Source: Giardia intestinalis (taxonomy: Eukaryota). From it: 64,000 bases of DNA. This document shows, piece by piece, positions 28,570 to 35,167 of this stretch (its first letter is position 1; each line of letters starts with the position of its first letter). The DNA lies in assembly GCA_000002435.2 (NCBI GenBank), contig CM018791.1; one strand, 5' to 3'. The translations under genes and the position numbers were made by a program. The notes beneath the pieces were generated by a model, which searched no databases, was not told the DNA's origin, and saw nothing but the letters and a program-made list of their open reading frames with translations.

Positions 28570-28950
28570 CCTCTTCTTTAAAAATTTGTGCTACTCTACT
28601 CTACCCTATCGTTCTCAGGTAATTAATGATATCATAAAAAACAGAGAGACTTGTTAGTCGTGCACTCTACATAAGCTCAAGCCTAGAATTTAACAGATGT
28701 TTCACGGAGTAGAATGGAACTAATTATATTTGGGATTGATGTTTTATAGGTCTCCTGCTCTTTTTAGAGTTGCACTAAGCTGACGAGGTTTCCTCTTTCT
28801 TTGCTTATGGTTCATGCTTTTCTGACGCTGATTGGATTTGCTTGCAGGTTATTACTGAGCTCTACTACTGTTTCCGCTTCAAGTGAACTTTCTGCCGGCC
28901 GCGTTATACAGTATCATTGAAGATTTGTTATAACAACTATAACTCAAAAA

Positions 28951-31437
28951 ATGACGTCTGCGCCGCAGCCCTCGGGCCTCTTCGACCCGGCGCCCCGGCC
29001 CACGGCGGCGGGGGACGGACGCCCGCCCGCGGCAGCCGCGCCCTCGTTCGTCCTCGCCGGCGACCCCGAGGGCCTCGCAGGCGCGTTCCTCCGCGTCGTC
29101 CACCAGGCGCTCGTCCTCGGGCGGCTCGAGGCCCTCCTCGACGGCCCCCCGCCCGCCGGAGACGCCCCGCAGCTCTGGGCCGGGCTCCTCCGCGCCGCGC
29201 TCGCCGGGGCGGGGACGCTCGACCTGGGGCCTCTTGCCGCGCAGCTCGGGCCGCTCCCAGACCCCGGGGCGCTCCCGGCGCTCGTCCGCTCCCTCCCGGC
29301 CCCCGTCTGCGCCGCGCTCTTCGGGCTCCCCGGGCCCTGCCCCGCGTGCGGCGCGCCCTCCCAGCCCGGGGCGAGCGCCGTCCTCGCGCCCGGAGAGGCC
29401 CTCGCCGCAGGGGCCCGGCGGGTCGGCCTCCGCTGCGAGAGCTGCACCCGCCCAGACGCCCTCCCGCTCGCCCGGCCGCCCCTCCTCCGCGCCGTCGCCG
29501 TCCCCCCGGGCTTCGCGGGCCCCGTCCCCCTCCGGCTCCCCGGCGACCTCTTCCTCGGGGCCGTCGTCACCCGCGCCCGCGCCGGCCACGCGCTCTCGGT
29601 CTTCGTCAACCCCGCCTTCGCCCAGGGCCGGAGCGACCTCGTCCGGGACCGCCGCTTCGTCCTCTACGCGCCCCCGGCCGCCGAGCTCCGCGCCCAGCCC
29701 GGGAGCCGCGCCGCCGAGCTCACGTACCTCCGCTACCGGAAGGTCCAGGCGTACCTCGAGCGCCCCGCCGCCGCCCGCGAGGCCGCCTCCTTCGGGGCGC
29801 CCCGCTTCGTCTTCTACTTCGACGGAGACGTTCTGCACCCAGACATTAGGAAGCGCTTTAATGCGCTAGCCTCTGATACTGACCTGATTGCGATTAATCC
29901 ATCACTATCTGCTCCACATCAGCCTCCAACCCTTTCGCAGCCACACACGCTATCCTCCCCCAAGGAGCCAGAAACTGTTGATGTCACACTTAAAGTCGGT
30001 GGTGCTACCAAGCAAACTCTAGCTGAACAGCAGCACACTCTTGCCTCTCCGTCCCTAGATTCGAGACCGCCTTTGAGTACACTTTCTTTGCACAAATCTA
30101 GCCAACTAGTTGGTGAATCGACTCCTTGGAAAGAAACCAAGACGATCTTATTGCGCCCAGACTTTGTTCAGGAAAGGAAAACATCGTGTTCAGATGAATT
30201 TCGTGAGCACATGGGCATATACATTCTGATTATTGTTCTAGCAGTTATAGTTCTTGTTCTCTTCATCCTCGTGATTGTTCTCTATTCCAGATTGATTAAT
30301 TTGACTGTTCGCAATCTACTTGTCACAAATTTCACGGCAATAGGTGTCCAGTCACGCTTAGACATCCCCAACCCAGCGCAGTTCACGTGCCCAAGTGGGA
30401 TTCAAGACGTGAACGCAGTAAGATACTGTGAGCAGATGGCTCCTGATGCAACCGTTGGCCTCTATGCACCAACTGTTCGAACCGGTACATTCAATTCTAA
30501 GCAGTACAATGTGACCAACCTCTACTATTCTAATATCTTCCTTCTTAACTTTACTCAGATAGCCCCTCTGAATGTCTCCGAACTCATAGCACAGAATATT
30601 ATGACAAATGACGTCACATATAGTACAGAACTTGTCCAGGAAGGGACAGCAGAGTTCCGGACCGGCCAGGTTAGTGTCCAAGGCTTTAGAAGTGCAGATT
30701 TCACCAACACAACGCTGAATTTCAGTCTTACGAGCCTTTCTGCTCTTCATGTGCGTGGCATCTCCTCGCCAAGCTCTGTGACTCCGTCGACTATAGGAAC
30801 TGTCAATGCCGGCAAACTAGTGTTGGCTCAAAAAGATCCAATCACTCCAATCACCACCTTCAGTATAATAGGAGACGTCAATGTGTCACGCCTCGTTGGA
30901 GGCTCTACAACAATCGGACAGCAGGCACTAGAATGGGTGTTTCAGAACGTATCCGCTTCCAAGCTAGTTACCACACCCGTAACAACGACAGTCAAGACAA
31001 TCAATGGAATGGATACTCCTGTCACATTAGATATAAACCTCAATGATGCTTTGTCCGTGAAGACTCTCACTCTTCTTAAGTCGGGTACGTCGGCATCGAT
31101 CCAAATATCTGCTGCATTTACCATCAGTAAGGCTTCTGTATACAATTGCACTACAGCCTTGCTGACAATTCCTAGTGCCACAGCGACTCCGCCCAACACG
31201 GGAACTGGTTTGTATATCAAGAGCCTCTCTGATAAACCGTTTCCTCAGATATCTGCTCTGGTTGTGGGGAATATTCGGATTGACAATGGGGGGATATGCA
31301 ACGCCAATGACCCTCCGGCATCTACGACGCGGACATGCATGATATCAAGCGCAGGCAGCAGCAATATCGGGTCTATGTCTGCCACGACAGTCACTTCTAC
31401 TGGGCAGTTGAAGAGCTCTTTCTGCCAATGCACATGA
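28951..31437 (+). CDS. Compositionally chimeric ORF (828 aa): an Ala/Pro/Gly/Arg/Leu-rich N-terminal ~295 aa encoded by ~80% GC DNA, fused in frame to a single-pass membrane protein with a Thr/Ser/Asn-rich ectodomain.
   Basis: ATG at 28951 follows an A/T-rich initiator (aactataactcaaaaaATG). GC3 exceeds 90% through ~29836, then composition abruptly returns to ~45% GC. There is a TM segment MGIYILIIVLAVIVLVLFILVIVLY at ~30212-30290 and many NxS/T sequons downstream. An alternative internal start is the Met at 30211. Confidence 0.55.
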   Translation: MTSAPQPSGLFDPAPRPTAAGDGRPPAAAAPSFVLAGDPEGLAGAFLRVVHQALVLGRLEALLDGPPPAGDAPQLWAGLLRAALAGAGTLDLGPLAAQLGPLPDPGALPALVRSLPAPVCAALFGLPGPCPACGAPSQPGASAVLAPGEALAAGARRVGLRCESCTRPDALPLARPPLLRAVAVPPGFAGPVPLRLPGDLFLGAVVTRARAGHALSVFVNPAFAQGRSDLVRDRRFVLYAPPAAELRAQPGSRAAELTYLRYRKVQAYLERPAAAREAASFGAPRFVFYFDGDVLHPDIRKRFNALASDTDLIAINPSLSAPHQPPTLSQPHTLSSPKEPETVDVTLKVGGATKQTLAEQQHTLASPSLDSRPPLSTLSLHKSSQLVGESTPWKETKTILLRPDFVQERKTSCSDEFREHMGIYILIIVLAVIVLVLFILVIVLYSRLINLTVRNLLVTNFTAIGVQSRLDIPNPAQFTCPSGIQDVNAVRYCEQMAPDATVGLYAPTVRTGTFNSKQYNVTNLYYSNIFLLNFTQIAPLNVSELIAQNIMTNDVTYSTELVQEGTAEFRTGQVSVQGFRSADFTNTTLNFSLTSLSALHVRGISSPSSVTPSTIGTVNAGKLVLAQKDPITPITTFSIIGDVNVSRLVGGSTTIGQQALEWVFQNVSASKLVTTPVTTTVKTINGMDTPVTLDINLNDALSVKTLTLLKSGTSASIQISAAFTISKASVYNCTTALLTIPSATATPPNTGTGLYIKSLSDKPFPQISALVVGNIRIDNGGICNANDPPASTTRTCMISSAGSSNIGSMSATTVTSTGQLKSSFCQCT
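28956..29836 (+). other. Roughly 0.9 kb compositional island (~80% GC against a ~48% background) with strong 3-nt periodicity in the +1 frame of the 28951 ORF.
   Basis: Codon-by-codon reading shows third positions are almost exclusively G/C while second positions are mixed. All six frames are stop-free across the block: ORF-track entries 28879-29838(-), 28917-29849(+), 28944-29609(-) and 29234-29869(+) all terminate at the edges of the block. Confidence 0.9.
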
Positions 31438-31465: not shown

Positions 31466-34153
31466 TTACATATCTTGTAACCTGTAGATTGCGGATACAA
31501 AGGCAACAAAAAGGGTGTGCGGGAGTCTGTGTTTTGACGTGAATTCAGGATGGTACTGGGTGGCCATGAAGAAGGGGTGTGCTTCTGTTGGTAACTCCAC
31601 AGCCATAGGAAGTTGGTTGGTGAAGTCCATACCACTTATTATCAGTCCGTGCTCAGTCAAGGTATCAATGTACTGGGTGTTGACGGCGAACGAGTGCCAG
31701 TGACGCTCCTTCACCTGAGGATACTTGTTGTAGCACTCGGATAGCATTGTGTTTGACTTAACTGACACCAGAAGGTCGCCCAGTCGCATAGTGCTATACT
31801 TTGCGGTGGTACCCGGATTGGCCGCGTTCTGCTGCTTGTGGAGAGGTTTGATTTGCCCGGTCTCAAGCATCTCACTAATGGGAATAATGAGTTTGTGCGG
31901 AGTGTCAGGGTCCATTTCCGTCGAGTTTGCATGGCTGAGACCACATACATTTCTCGCAAACTCGCACACCATCATCTGGAAGCCAAGACAGAGACCAAGT
32001 ATTGGCTTGTTGTGAGTTCTTGCATATTTAATCGATAACATAAGGCCGTTAACACCAATGTCTCCAAACCCACCAGGAAGAACAAACCCGTGGGCCTCTT
32101 GTAGAATGTCATCACAGTTCTTTTCATCAAGAGCTGTGGGATCTACCCACAGGAATGCGAATGGCTTATCATGGTAGTATTTGTGCATAGTAGCCCGCAG
32201 TGCTTCCAGGATAGAGAGGTAGGAGTCCTCTCTTGCAACAAACTTCCCGACAATTGCTATAATGCAGGGAAGATCCAAATGCTTAAGGGTCATTTCATGG
32301 CGAAGAGTTTTTGCTTGGGCTGCACTTGCAAGCATCTGCTGCAAACTCGTCTCGACTTCCTTTTTCTTCAGATTTTCAATGCGCAACTTTAAGTGTCCAT
32401 CAGCGTTCGAGGGGTGATGATGCTTTTTGAGCTTCAGTGTTACGTGGGTACTTCTATTACGTACAGATGCGGAGGACCCAGAATTATGAGCCAAGACGAT
32501 TTCTCCAGGAACTTCACTGGTAGACTCACTTGGGCCTTGCAATTCTGAGTGAGCTGTCGGTGTGTGCGCGCAGGAATCTGTGCAGTAACTATGGCCACTC
32601 TGGTAGCTCTGGTAGCTTTGATGGCTTGGTAGGTCTTTTGCCGTAGCTGTAATCAAGGACCCAAGGGGCATATTGGTGTCTTTCTCTGCAAGAAAGGCAT
32701 CTCCATAGTTCTTGACCATCTTTGCCACGCTTTTGGACCCAAAGTATTTCTTCTGTGAACTTAAGTGTGACTTATCAGCAATAGTACTAGTGTCAGACTC
32801 GGAATCATACAGTGCCATGTCCGAGATGACCTCTTCGGAGTGGTCCTCGTCATATATGTTGGACGCCAGGCGCATGTGCGTTAACTTCTGGCTTATAGAC
32901 TTGCAGCAGAGATCAGTTGGGGATGCCAAATATGTAAAAGTTGCCTCTGTGATGGCCTCATTGACATCCAGCAAGTGTGAATTAAGGGTACAAATGGGGC
33001 ACACTTCTGTATTCTTTGCGGTCCCACATATCATGCAGATGGCACCAAAAATGCCTTCAGCTGCGTGATCCTGCTCTTCAGTAATGTTCGCCAGAGCGTT
33101 ATCGAATCCTCTGAGCACCTCGTCCCCCAATTCCACCACCTCTTCGCGGTCCACCCTCATCTCCACGAGGACATTCCCAAGCGCCTCCATCTGACCCGTG
33201 CATTTGGCCATCTCAATAGCTTTCTTCATATCTGTTTCAGCTGTTAACGCGCTCTCATCAGTGAATGAAGGAAGAACCGCCATCGAGCTGACCAGCTCTG
33301 TTGCAGACTTGGCAGCAAAGGCCTTGAACGCCCAAGCTTTGTTCCATTTGGCAATGAGCTCTTTCAGCATTATTTTCTCGTCAGACATTCCTTTAGCGTC
33401 TACTCGCGTTGCATTGATGGTGTATTCATCGTCCAAAATGTCTGTGCTATTTAGGTTCTGAAGTTGTATGAGGTAGTCCGGGGCGTACCCGCAGAAAAGC
33501 TGCATTATCTCTGGCTTGATTGCATCAGGATTTGCTGTGGCCATCAAAATAATGATGCTGCCTCGCTGCGGAGCAGATGGAGGTGGATCTTCACTGCAAC
33601 TCAGAGACAGCAGCCTCTCGATGGTTCTAGTAAAAATTTGGGTTGAGGGTTGGCGCACACCGCCCCCAATCTCAACGATACGAATGGGGATTTCATAGGA
33701 ATTCATACCTGAAGAAGGTGGATGCTGCAGGGTGGGCTCCATCTGGATGTACGTAACAAGGTAATCCAATAGGTCCTCTTCGAAGGTAAGCCGTGTAAAC
33801 CCGGTTTCCTGTTGCTTCGCCTGTTGAATGTACAGCTGCTGAATGGCCTGTCCAAGGGTTAAACATGACGTTCGCGGCAGCTCTCCCGTTATACTTCTCT
33901 CAATGATCCCCACGTCATAATCCACCTCGCCACCGTCCCATGTGATGAAGGCCTCACCCTCCTTCTCTGGAGAAAGATTTCCAAAAGTTAAAGATAGGGT
34001 TGTGGAGAGCTTTAGGTACGAGAAAGGGATTCTTTTCTGGTCTAGATAAGAGGCCAGATAGGCCGACAGAGCTGTTGTCTTCGCATTGTAGTCATCTGTG
34101 AGAATGAAAATAAAGCGCTGGACGCCCTTCGTTACATCTGCAGAAAGAGGCAT
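31466..34153 (-). CDS. Divergent CTP synthase-like protein (895 aa) with a ~330-aa insertion between the synthetase and glutamine-amidotransferase domains.
   Basis: The N-terminus aligns to the CTPS synthetase domain ([27 protein letters not shown] vs [35 protein letters not shown] vs IVELGGTVGD). The C-terminal ~250 aa is a class-I GATase with the catalytic Cys in GLCLGFQ and His in YHPEF. The central region (residues ~290-620) has no CTPS counterpart. Confidence 0.7.
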   Translation of the reverse strand: [895 protein letters not shown]

Positions 34154-34582
34154 GGGAAGCTAAGTTTTAGGAGCTAAGTTTTAAGATGTAAATTTTCTAC
34201 AAAATTGAGACGGGCTTATAGACTAAGGCTAAGTCTTTCTATGACAAAGCGGGTCCACACTCTTTAGAACCTGAGCTATGGCAAAGTAGCACAACGCTGG
34301 CCATAAAATATCACTTGAGAAATTGAACGTTAGTTGTGTGGAAGGTTAGTATGTGAAAGCAGAGTGTATATTTTTTGAGGAACACACTACAGATTAGGTT
34401 TCGCCCAACTGTCCTCGTTCCTAGCACGAAGCCCACACCATAATTGCTAAAACGGAAACGACAATTCAATATTTCAACTCAATTTTTCGTTAATCAATAA
34501 TTTAGCATAATGAATTAAAATATGAAAAAGGTCAGCGGCGATAATCTAGAGTTAATCTAGGGTAATACAGGGAACTGCAAAC

Positions 34583-35167
34583 ATGTTCCTTTTATCCATT
34601 CTCTGGCTTCCTGCAGTGGTCTATTCCGTTGAAACGACGATAACTCAGGGAGAGAGGCTCTGCTTTGTAGAGGAGCTCCCGACTGGTGTGAAGCTTCAGG
34701 GCTCGTATGGAGCGAAGAGCCCAGTGGAGTTTCCTGTTTCAGTGACTATCTTGTCGCCAAACGGAACACTGTATCGATCCGACGATATCCCAGAAGAAGC
34801 CCGCTTCTCTTTTTCTGTGACAACGAGTGGCACATATCAACTCTGCTTTATAGGCCAAGTCCGGCGCGAAGGACAGAGGTCTCGGTATATATCGATTAAC
34901 CTTGACGTAGGGTCTGTCTTTGGATCATCTTCGACATCTGATGTTGATGCAAACAAGCTCCCCCTCATAGAGTCTATCGTTTCAGATATGAAGGAGGTCA
35001 AAGAGGACTTTTCTTACATGAAGCACCGAGAGTTGTTTCTCCGTGCTCGGATCAAGAGACTTGCCACATCCGTCATGATGGTGTCTACCCTTTGCGTTCT
35101 AGTTAGCTGGGCTGGTATGATTTTGATAGGTCAATGGACGCGTATAAGTGTCAGGAAGCACATGTGA
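34583..35167 (+). CDS. p24/emp24/gp25L (TMED) family cargo receptor with a GOLD domain (194 aa).
   Basis: Signal peptide MFLLSILWLPAVVYS, a beta-rich GOLD-like region with a conserved Cys pair (CFVEE...YQLCF), a short coiled-coil (MKEVKEDFSYMKHRELFLRARIKRL), a C-terminal TM and a short cytosolic tail. Confidence 0.65.
   Translation: MFLLSILWLPAVVYSVETTITQGERLCFVEELPTGVKLQGSYGAKSPVEFPVSVTILSPNGTLYRSDDIPEEARFSFSVTTSGTYQLCFIGQVRREGQRSRYISINLDVGSVFGSSSTSDVDANKLPLIESIVSDMKEVKEDFSYMKHRELFLRARIKRLATSVMMVSTLCVLVSWAGMILIGQWTRISVRKHM

Follow-up and report, generated by a model that had tools for sequence, protein, structure and literature searches.

The question raised by this locus is whether a Giardia intestinalis gene annotated as CTP synthase (CTPS) encodes an enzyme that makes CTP. 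The gene lies in the 64,000-nucleotide stretch of contig CM018791.1 (assembly GCA_000002435.2) that was analysed here and is called the window, where it forms a complete, uninterrupted open reading frame (ORF) of 895 amino acids plus stop on the minus strand (31466..34153). Its length and span are exactly those of GL50803_4507 ('CTP synthase/UTP-ammonia lyase', CH991782:1086765-1089452(-), 895 amino acids, 99 kDa). An initial annotation, made from the letters of the window, had proposed either a regulatory or pseudo-enzyme paralogue of CTPS or a CTPS bearing a lineage-specific filament or regulatory module. The first proposal is supported by the broad degeneracy of the protein, the existence of a canonical second copy, and conservation. 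The second, in which the enzyme is active, finds no support because the synthetase site is broadly degenerate. Taken together, the residue and homologue comparisons described below indicate that the window protein is very probably a paralogue that does not synthesise CTP and has been kept by selection. On balance, the gene appears to encode a pseudo-enzyme, not the CTP-making enzyme of Giardia, with a non-catalytic role, possibly as a prozyme-like partner. The 'prozymes' of trypanosomatids are catalytically dead paralogues that activate S-adenosylmethionine decarboxylase or deoxyhypusine synthase, and their hetero-oligomerisation has been demonstrated.

In protozoan parasites, CTPS is among the candidate drug targets, and Giardia relies on salvage for its pyrimidines. 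Databases name two Giardia genes CTP synthase, and the catalytic machinery is found in one only. Genes of the GL50803_4507 type are mislabelled, with consequences for metabolic reconstructions and target lists.

Degeneration of the Synthetase Domain

The window protein has the two-domain order of CTPS, an N-terminal amidoligase (synthetase) domain followed by a class-I glutamine amidotransferase (GATase) domain. The amidoligase domain is degenerate and comprises residues 1-278 (33320..34153; all features of the gene are on the minus strand). Pfam CTP_synth_N matches it weakly and partially (residues 30-181, 43.9 bits), versus 356.6 bits for the canonical Giardia CTPS with the same model. In a search of PDB sequences, the similarity of the N-terminal part to T. 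thermophilus CTPS is likewise weak (27 bits). The predicted structure of the domain superposes on CTPS.

Residues were compared by aligning the window protein with E. coli PyrG (from NC_000913.3), the canonical Giardia CTPS, and clostridial CTPS. At the P-loop (Walker A) position, residues 17-28 (34070..34105), the canonical VTGGVVSSLGKG is replaced by an acidic sequence with the core TDDYNAKTT, from which every Gly is gone. The E. coli P-loop residues G10, G11, S14, S15, G17, K18, and G19 correspond to T19, D20, N23, A24, K25, T26, and T27. Alignment to PyrG and the Giardia CTPS thus bears out the degenerate Gly-rich loop of the initial annotation, and further motifs are degenerate too. The accompanying statement that all Gly and Lys were lost holds for Gly but not for Lys: K25 remains, one position off the register of the Walker lysine, and is present in Giardia muris and Spironucleus, not in the Giardia-like orthologue P0126 described below. 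A P-loop hidden elsewhere was considered and rejected. Neither G-x4-G-K-[STG] nor GK[STG] occurs in the whole protein or in a six-frame translation of window positions 33200-34500, so the claim of a lost P-loop stands.

Other positions of the synthetase site have changed as well. The conserved DPYxNxD motif (E. coli D42/Y44/N46/D48) has become S/T/S/T, and His57 of the E. coli ammonia gate corresponds to E65. After EIGG, GVRQPST stands in place of TVGDIES, with loss of the UTP/CTP-binding D147 and E149. No counterpart of KTKPTQHS (K187-T-K189-P-T-Q192) was found, the sole candidate by eye being IKPEIMQ, in a region (residues 200-290) where the alignment is unreliable. Profile-profile alignment and MAFFT conflict there, and for K187, K189, Q192, R211, and K223 the result is to be read only as 'no motif counterpart found'. 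The Mg2+ and phosphate ligands K40, D72, E140, G142, and G143 are kept as K48, D80, E161, G163, and G164, the last three within EIGG (residues 161-164, 33662..33673). K48, D80, and E161 are invariant across all four lineages of the pseudo-CTPS (the G. intestinalis group, G. muris, P0126, and Spironucleus), and the equivalents of G142 and G143 are likewise retained. Because these residues are kept, ligand or Mg2+ binding by the N domain may persist.

The Glutamine Amidotransferase Domain

The C-terminal GATase domain (residues 626-895, 31469..32278) is readily recognised. Pfam GATase (PF00117) matches residues 665-886 with 85.8 bits against a gathering threshold of 22.8, and the search of PDB sequences pairs residues 622-893 with 293-547 of T. 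thermophilus CTPS (E 1e-55). These matches place the window protein in the class-I GATase superfamily. The Cys and His named in the initial annotation are indeed retained, and the complete triad aligns with that of E. coli: C722, the nucleophile in GLCLGFQ (codon 31988..31990), with C379, and H868 and E870 of YHPEF (H868-P-E870, 31544..31552) with H515 and E517. The oxyanion strand PGGFG (E. coli P350-G-G-F-G, including G351/G352) and the equivalents of Q383 and E403 are kept as well. With the triad kept in three lineages, the Giardia GATase domain may still hydrolyse glutamine. Arg356, Arg468, and Arg470 of E. coli CTPS are implicated in GTP activation, the roles of the GTP site and the gate being taken from the same source (PMC9138612). 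In the window protein, R356 is replaced by I699, and R468-H-R470 by W819-H-S821 (31691..31699).

An AlphaFold model built on a 125-sequence alignment has a predicted local distance difference test score (pLDDT) that averages ~90 over the GATase domain and 60-87 over the N domain. A model from a six-sequence alignment had a mean pLDDT of 40 and was not used. Foldseek superposes the former on full-length CTPS (1vco, 8uv4, 8sbr, and others) with a template modelling (TM) score of ~0.76 normalised to the target, which shows fold compatibility and not independent proof, since canonical CTPS sequences were in the alignment.

The Canonical CTP Synthase of Giardia

A second, canonical CTPS is present in the organism, and the window gene is therefore a paralogue. 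The canonical protein P0277 ('CTP synthase [Giardia duodenalis]', 620 amino acids) has an intact P-loop, GDMES, KTKPTQHS, and triad. It passes the cut-offs of both NCBIfam equivalog models, scoring 682 with NF003792 (cut-off 308) and 638.7 with TIGR00337 (cut-off 462.75), whereas the window protein reaches 266.3 and 253.2, respectively. Judged by these scores and motifs, the window protein, which fails both cut-offs and several defining features, is outside the CTP synthase equivalog families.

The canonical copy came to light through P0162 (617 amino acids, perfect P-loop; L002:137-1990), which lies on a contig with Giardia-like gene packing and was found by an exhaustive profile search covering 1.84 billion representative proteins. 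Searching with P0162 then retrieved P0277, which occurs on a 2.76-Mb contig among others. Sample SRR17450158 holds P0162 together with a pseudo copy, P0004, and co-existence of the canonical and pseudo forms is established for G. intestinalis. The canonical gene is not within the 64-kb window. A full-length homologue search with the window protein gave five matches among 8000 candidates and no ordinary CTPS. A search with the GATase domain returned short bacterial CTPS fragments of up to 467 amino acids, with the Giardia paralogue not among them.

P0277 carries additional segments in the synthase and GATase domains that match those of the described Giardia enzyme, GiCTPS, whose activity has been measured, whose gene is expressed, and whose inserts have been described (PMC9138612). 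Two WB gene identifiers are used in the literature, GL50803_17587 ('CTP synthase') and GL50803_4507, and P0277 is probably the product of the former. Among the retrieved proteins, the closest relatives of P0277 and P0162 outside Giardia are clostridial and other bacterial CTPS with ~45-47% identity, the value for P0277 against clostridial CTPS being ~46-47%. This similarity hints at a bacterial-type origin of the canonical Giardia enzyme.

A Probable Pseudo-CTPS Family under Selection

Orthologues of the window protein form a small family. The window protein is 95% identical to P0001, 'CTP synthase/UTP-ammonia lyase [Giardia lamblia P15]', in the homologue search, 84-87% identical to three Logan-assembly proteins (P0002-P0004), and 48% identical overall (MAFFT) to G. 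muris P0005, a protein of 670 amino acids with the same product name. In the profile search, P0001, P0005, the fragment P0006, and P0126 scored at least 480 bits, and the next match, at 230 bits, was an ordinary CTPS. P0126 (663 amino acids; Logan sample SRR31929897, locus L008:2764-4755) is Giardia-like, and its gene neighbours CAF1, as in G. muris. The best ordinary CTPS scored 230.5 bits, ahead of the canonical Giardia CTPS, whose representative P0162 scored 188.6. The sequences are separated by very long branches.

The fourth lineage is represented by Spironucleus salmonicida 'CTP synthase' (P0158; EST44381.1 / V6LKW5, 472 amino acids), which scored 190 bits in the same search. It has a degenerate P-loop, SSDAQSSCKT, and has the derived GIIERS and an inserted 'SGF..LS' in common with the window protein. 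The N domains of the two proteins are 37% identical (117 bits), compared with 29% identity over 139 amino acids (48.9 bits) between the window protein and the canonical Giardia CTPS. In the Spironucleus GATase domain, FLPQF has L and Q for the triad His and Glu, Y occupies the Q383 position, and PGGFG reads LDGFG. The shared Spironucleus orthologue implies that the pseudo-CTPS family is older than the split of Giardia and Spironucleus. By these comparisons, the degenerate N domain, not the glutaminase, is the best-conserved part of the family across diplomonads. This conservation and the loss of His and Glu in Spironucleus together suggest that the shared function is non-catalytic and seated in the remodelled N domain. 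Similarly, the loss of the GTP-site arginines and the ammonia gate, along with the dead Spironucleus domain, suggests that glutaminase activity is not the core function.

Selection on the protein is evident within the G. intestinalis group, where the nonsynonymous substitution rate (dN) is 0.036 in the N domain, 0.031 in the GATase domain, and ~0.15 in the linker insertion described below. The synonymous rate (dS) is saturated (>1.4 or undefined), and only dN and the qualitative statement that dN is far below dS were used. Since constraint on the N domain is as tight as on the GATase domain, the gene is neither a decaying pseudogene nor a misassembly. Conservation between assemblages is 84-86% for the pseudo copy versus 83% for the canonical enzyme. 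Loss of catalytic residues thus coincides with purifying selection, as expected of a pseudo-enzyme.

Two further CTPS-like proteins without a P-loop were encountered. P0231 (553 amino acids, L010:1767-3428) is a second, more degenerate relative from the sample that holds P0126. FGN..GEAFI and RRFWHGY are common to it and the pseudo family. Its P-loop and the counterparts of K40 and D72 are missing, and TGGMND stands for PGGFG; the Cys and HPE are kept. It is either a further duplication or derived from a second organism. P0163 (545 amino acids, from a 1.7-kb Logan contig) looks unrelated to the family. Its P-loop position reads ILNNSVHRKDG and EISD replaces EIGG; it reaches 131 bits with CTP_synth_N and has an intact GATase domain. 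The synthetase P-loop may thus have been lost independently in other lineages. As P0163 and P0231 come from unrelated sequencing runs, loss of the synthetase site may recur in the evolution of the CTPS family.

The Linker Insertion

The interdomain linker of the window protein contains an insertion of ~345 residues (~279-625, 32279..33319) that has no counterpart in canonical CTPS. Its existence had been noted in the initial annotation, which placed ~330 residues at ~290-620; the extent proved slightly wider. The insertion is bounded by the linker helix (~278, with the motif KELIAKWN at ~270) and the first GATase strand, IIAIVGKF (631), between which canonical CTPS has only a few tens of residues. 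The linker region measures ~125-135 amino acids in G. muris and P0126, and Spironucleus has no insertion. Between G. intestinalis and G. muris, the insertion is 25% identical, compared with 51% for the N domain and 55% for the GATase domain. The insertion dN of 0.13-0.17 is four to five times that of the domains and still far below the saturated dS. In the AlphaFold model from the deep alignment, pLDDT is below 50 over residues 358-592, and helices are predicted at 305-355 and 586-620. Searches with the insertion alone against Pfam and PDB sequences gave nothing significant. An origin by frameshift or misassembly is rejected, as four other assemblies have the insertion in frame, GL50803_4507 is also 895 amino acids long, and the insertion dN is so far below dS.

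As first noted, a Cys cluster and a His-rich patch lie within the insertion, and both fall outside the diplomonad-conserved core. The Cys4 motif (C373, C376, C385, and C388; CxxC-x8-CxxC; residues 373-388, 32990..33037) is a candidate zinc knuckle. A CxxC-x(0-20)-CxxC pattern arose in 46 of 20000 shuffles of the window protein. The four Cys residues are invariant in all five sequences of the G. intestinalis group and absent in G. muris, P0126, and Spironucleus. Zinc-finger Pfam models match the segment below threshold only (e.g., Prok-RING_4, 14.2 vs 27 bits), and model confidence is low there. The putative Cys4 knuckle is probably a metal (zinc) site. The His-rich patch KKHHHPSN (residues 576-583, 32405..32428) is less constant: four of the five group sequences have HHHPSN, P15 has KKYHYTSN, and the patch is absent in G. 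muris, P0126, and Spironucleus. A QSY micro-repeat (residues 511-523, 32585..32623) carries indels of 3-6 amino acids in P0002-P0004. The insertion thus appears to be a late, Giardia-specific, largely disordered expansion with a Cys4 motif limited to the G. intestinalis group. It is most plausibly a protein-interaction or localisation module.

What the Window Protein May Do

Several explanations compete with the pseudo-enzyme reading. A genuine CTPS with non-canonical ATP and UTP binding is highly improbable. The database name 'CTP synthase/UTP-ammonia lyase', the CTPS architecture, and the kept K40, D72, and E140 equivalents speak for it. However, no frame holds a P-loop, GDIES and the residues H57, R356, R468, and R470 are lost, KTKPTQHS was not found, and the protein falls under both equivalog cut-offs while the other copy of the organism passes. 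Even less credence is due to a pseudogene in decay, or to an insertion created by misassembly or frameshift. Although many catalytic residues are lost and a long region lacks homologues, each of five sequences of the G. intestinalis group shows an uninterrupted, in-frame ORF, with further orthologues in G. muris, P0126, and Spironucleus. In addition, dN is far below dS in every segment, synteny is kept, the published gene model is equally long, and peptides have been detected.

Two other possibilities carry more weight. The protein could be a neofunctionalised enzyme that is catalytic without being a CTPS, either an active glutaminase whose remodelled N domain passes the ammonia to a new acceptor or a stand-alone glutaminase. 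G. intestinalis, G. muris, and P0126 all conserve C722, H868, E870, PGGFG, and the equivalents of Q383 and E403, the GATase dN is among the values that indicate constraint (0.031), and the K40, D72, E140, G142, and G143 equivalents occur in all four lineages. Nevertheless, Spironucleus has kept the N domain while losing the His, the Glu, the Q383 equivalent, and part of the oxyanion strand. The H57 gate and R356, R468, and R470 are also gone, and a glycine-free, acidic P-loop makes ATP-driven activation of an acceptor unlikely. This explanation is considered unlikely. Alternatively, the fold could serve independently of CTPS as a scaffold or filament element of a structural or moonlighting protein, with the insertion as an interaction or localisation module. 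This option is compatible with the purifying selection on the insertion, its conserved Cys4 and predicted helices, the recovery of GL50803_4507 from organelle-enriched fractions, and the known polymerisation of CTPS, of which filament structures are in the PDB. However, the mass-spectrometry support consists of few spectra for a protein classed under 'metabolism', and the ancestral function cannot reside in an insertion that Spironucleus lacks and that is short in G. muris. A structural role of this kind seems somewhat less likely again than a new catalytic one.

The pseudo-enzyme reading leaves room for more than one mode of action. Most likely, the pseudo-CTPS would act as a binding partner, forming mixed oligomers with the canonical CTPS or regulating it in another way; alternatively, it could act as a scaffold. 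By analogy with the prozymes, a specific partner mechanism directed at the canonical CTPS is possible but doubtful. More tentative is the idea of a diplomonad-wide 'CTPS prozyme' whose remodelled pocket, with the K40, D72, and E140 equivalents, would sense a ligand while the protein assembles with or gates the bacterial-like CTPS. If a prozyme is indeed involved, it could provide parasite-specific control of the CTP supply in organisms whose pyrimidines come wholly from salvage, with the G. intestinalis form bearing a disordered arm with a zinc knuckle for localisation or partner recruitment, a proposal that is just as speculative.

Some observations weigh against a pseudo-enzyme that partners the canonical CTPS. 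The wide divergence between the N domain and its canonical counterpart could speak against mixed oligomers, and the kept K40, D72, and E140 equivalents could mean residual chemistry and not mere binding. The triad, oxyanion strand, and Q383/E403 equivalents are strictly kept in the three Giardia-type lineages, which fits a catalytic role there. The CTPS-like fold of the model was partly imposed by the canonical sequences in its alignment. Finally, the sources on GiCTPS hint at no requirement for a partner, nor do they state that the enzyme functions alone (PMC9138612).

Expression and Genomic Neighbourhood

The GL50803_4507 protein has been seen by mass spectrometry with low spectral counts, according to a proteomics supplement in which it is classed as 'metabolism'. 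The gene lies head-to-head with emp24 (window 34583..35167), an arrangement kept in Logan contigs and in G. muris. A UCH gene likewise adjoins the pseudo-CTPS orthologues in Logan contigs. The divergent spacer between pseudo-CTPS and emp24 (window 34154-34582, ~430 bp) is AT-rich, with 36% GC at 34300-34599, and long compared with the ~30-bp spacers on Giardia contigs L002 and L005. An Rfam scan of the whole window, this spacer included, gave zero matches.

Beyond the stop codon of the gene, a GC island of 72-84% at window 28900-29800 stands out from a surrounding region of 43-50% GC. It makes up the 5' third of an 828-amino-acid ORF (28951..31437, plus strand) with a hydrophobic, transmembrane-like segment and no Pfam match. 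Homology of its translation to the syntenic neighbour in G. muris (32% identity over 472 amino acids, E 7e-34) shows that the island is real coding sequence. All three Logan contigs with a pseudo-CTPS orthologue stop 1.0-1.65 kb beyond its stop codon, at about the start of the island, where short-read assemblies probably break.

Relation to Known Systems

In full-text literature searches, no paper was found that describes a CTPS pseudo-enzyme or the degeneracy of GL50803_4507, and searches on Spironucleus and CTP synthase yielded no prior description. The finding is apparently undescribed, but dead paralogues are common and the mechanism is hypothetical. Its significance lies in a dead CTPS paralogue that is strongly constrained from Giardia to Spironucleus, with both active sites degraded in the latter. 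If the pseudo-CTPS regulates or scaffolds the real enzyme, it would offer a parasite-specific handle on nucleotide supply.

Canonical CTPS, exemplified by E. coli PyrG and GiCTPS (P0277), shares with the window protein the order of amidoligase, linker, and GATase and a superposable predicted fold. The GATase domains are ~31-42% identical, and the Cys-His-Glu triad is common to both. In contrast, the window protein lacks the P-loop and GDIES, has H57, R356, R468, and R470 replaced, and carries the 345-residue linker insertion. The Spironucleus protein has the same type of degenerate P-loop but has no insertion and has lost the GATase His and Glu. A further comparison is provided by NF004836, 'CTP synthase C-terminal region-related (seleno)protein', a family of stand-alone CTPS-type GATases. 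The window protein scores 114.9 bits with this model (cut-off 260) and differs from the family by its full-length, though degenerate, N domain.

The trypanosomatid prozymes offer another parallel. They belong to other enzyme families, and hetero-oligomerisation with, or activation of, the canonical enzyme is hypothetical for the window protein. Nonetheless, both are dead paralogues of metabolic enzymes that purifying selection has preserved in parasitic protists beside the active copy.

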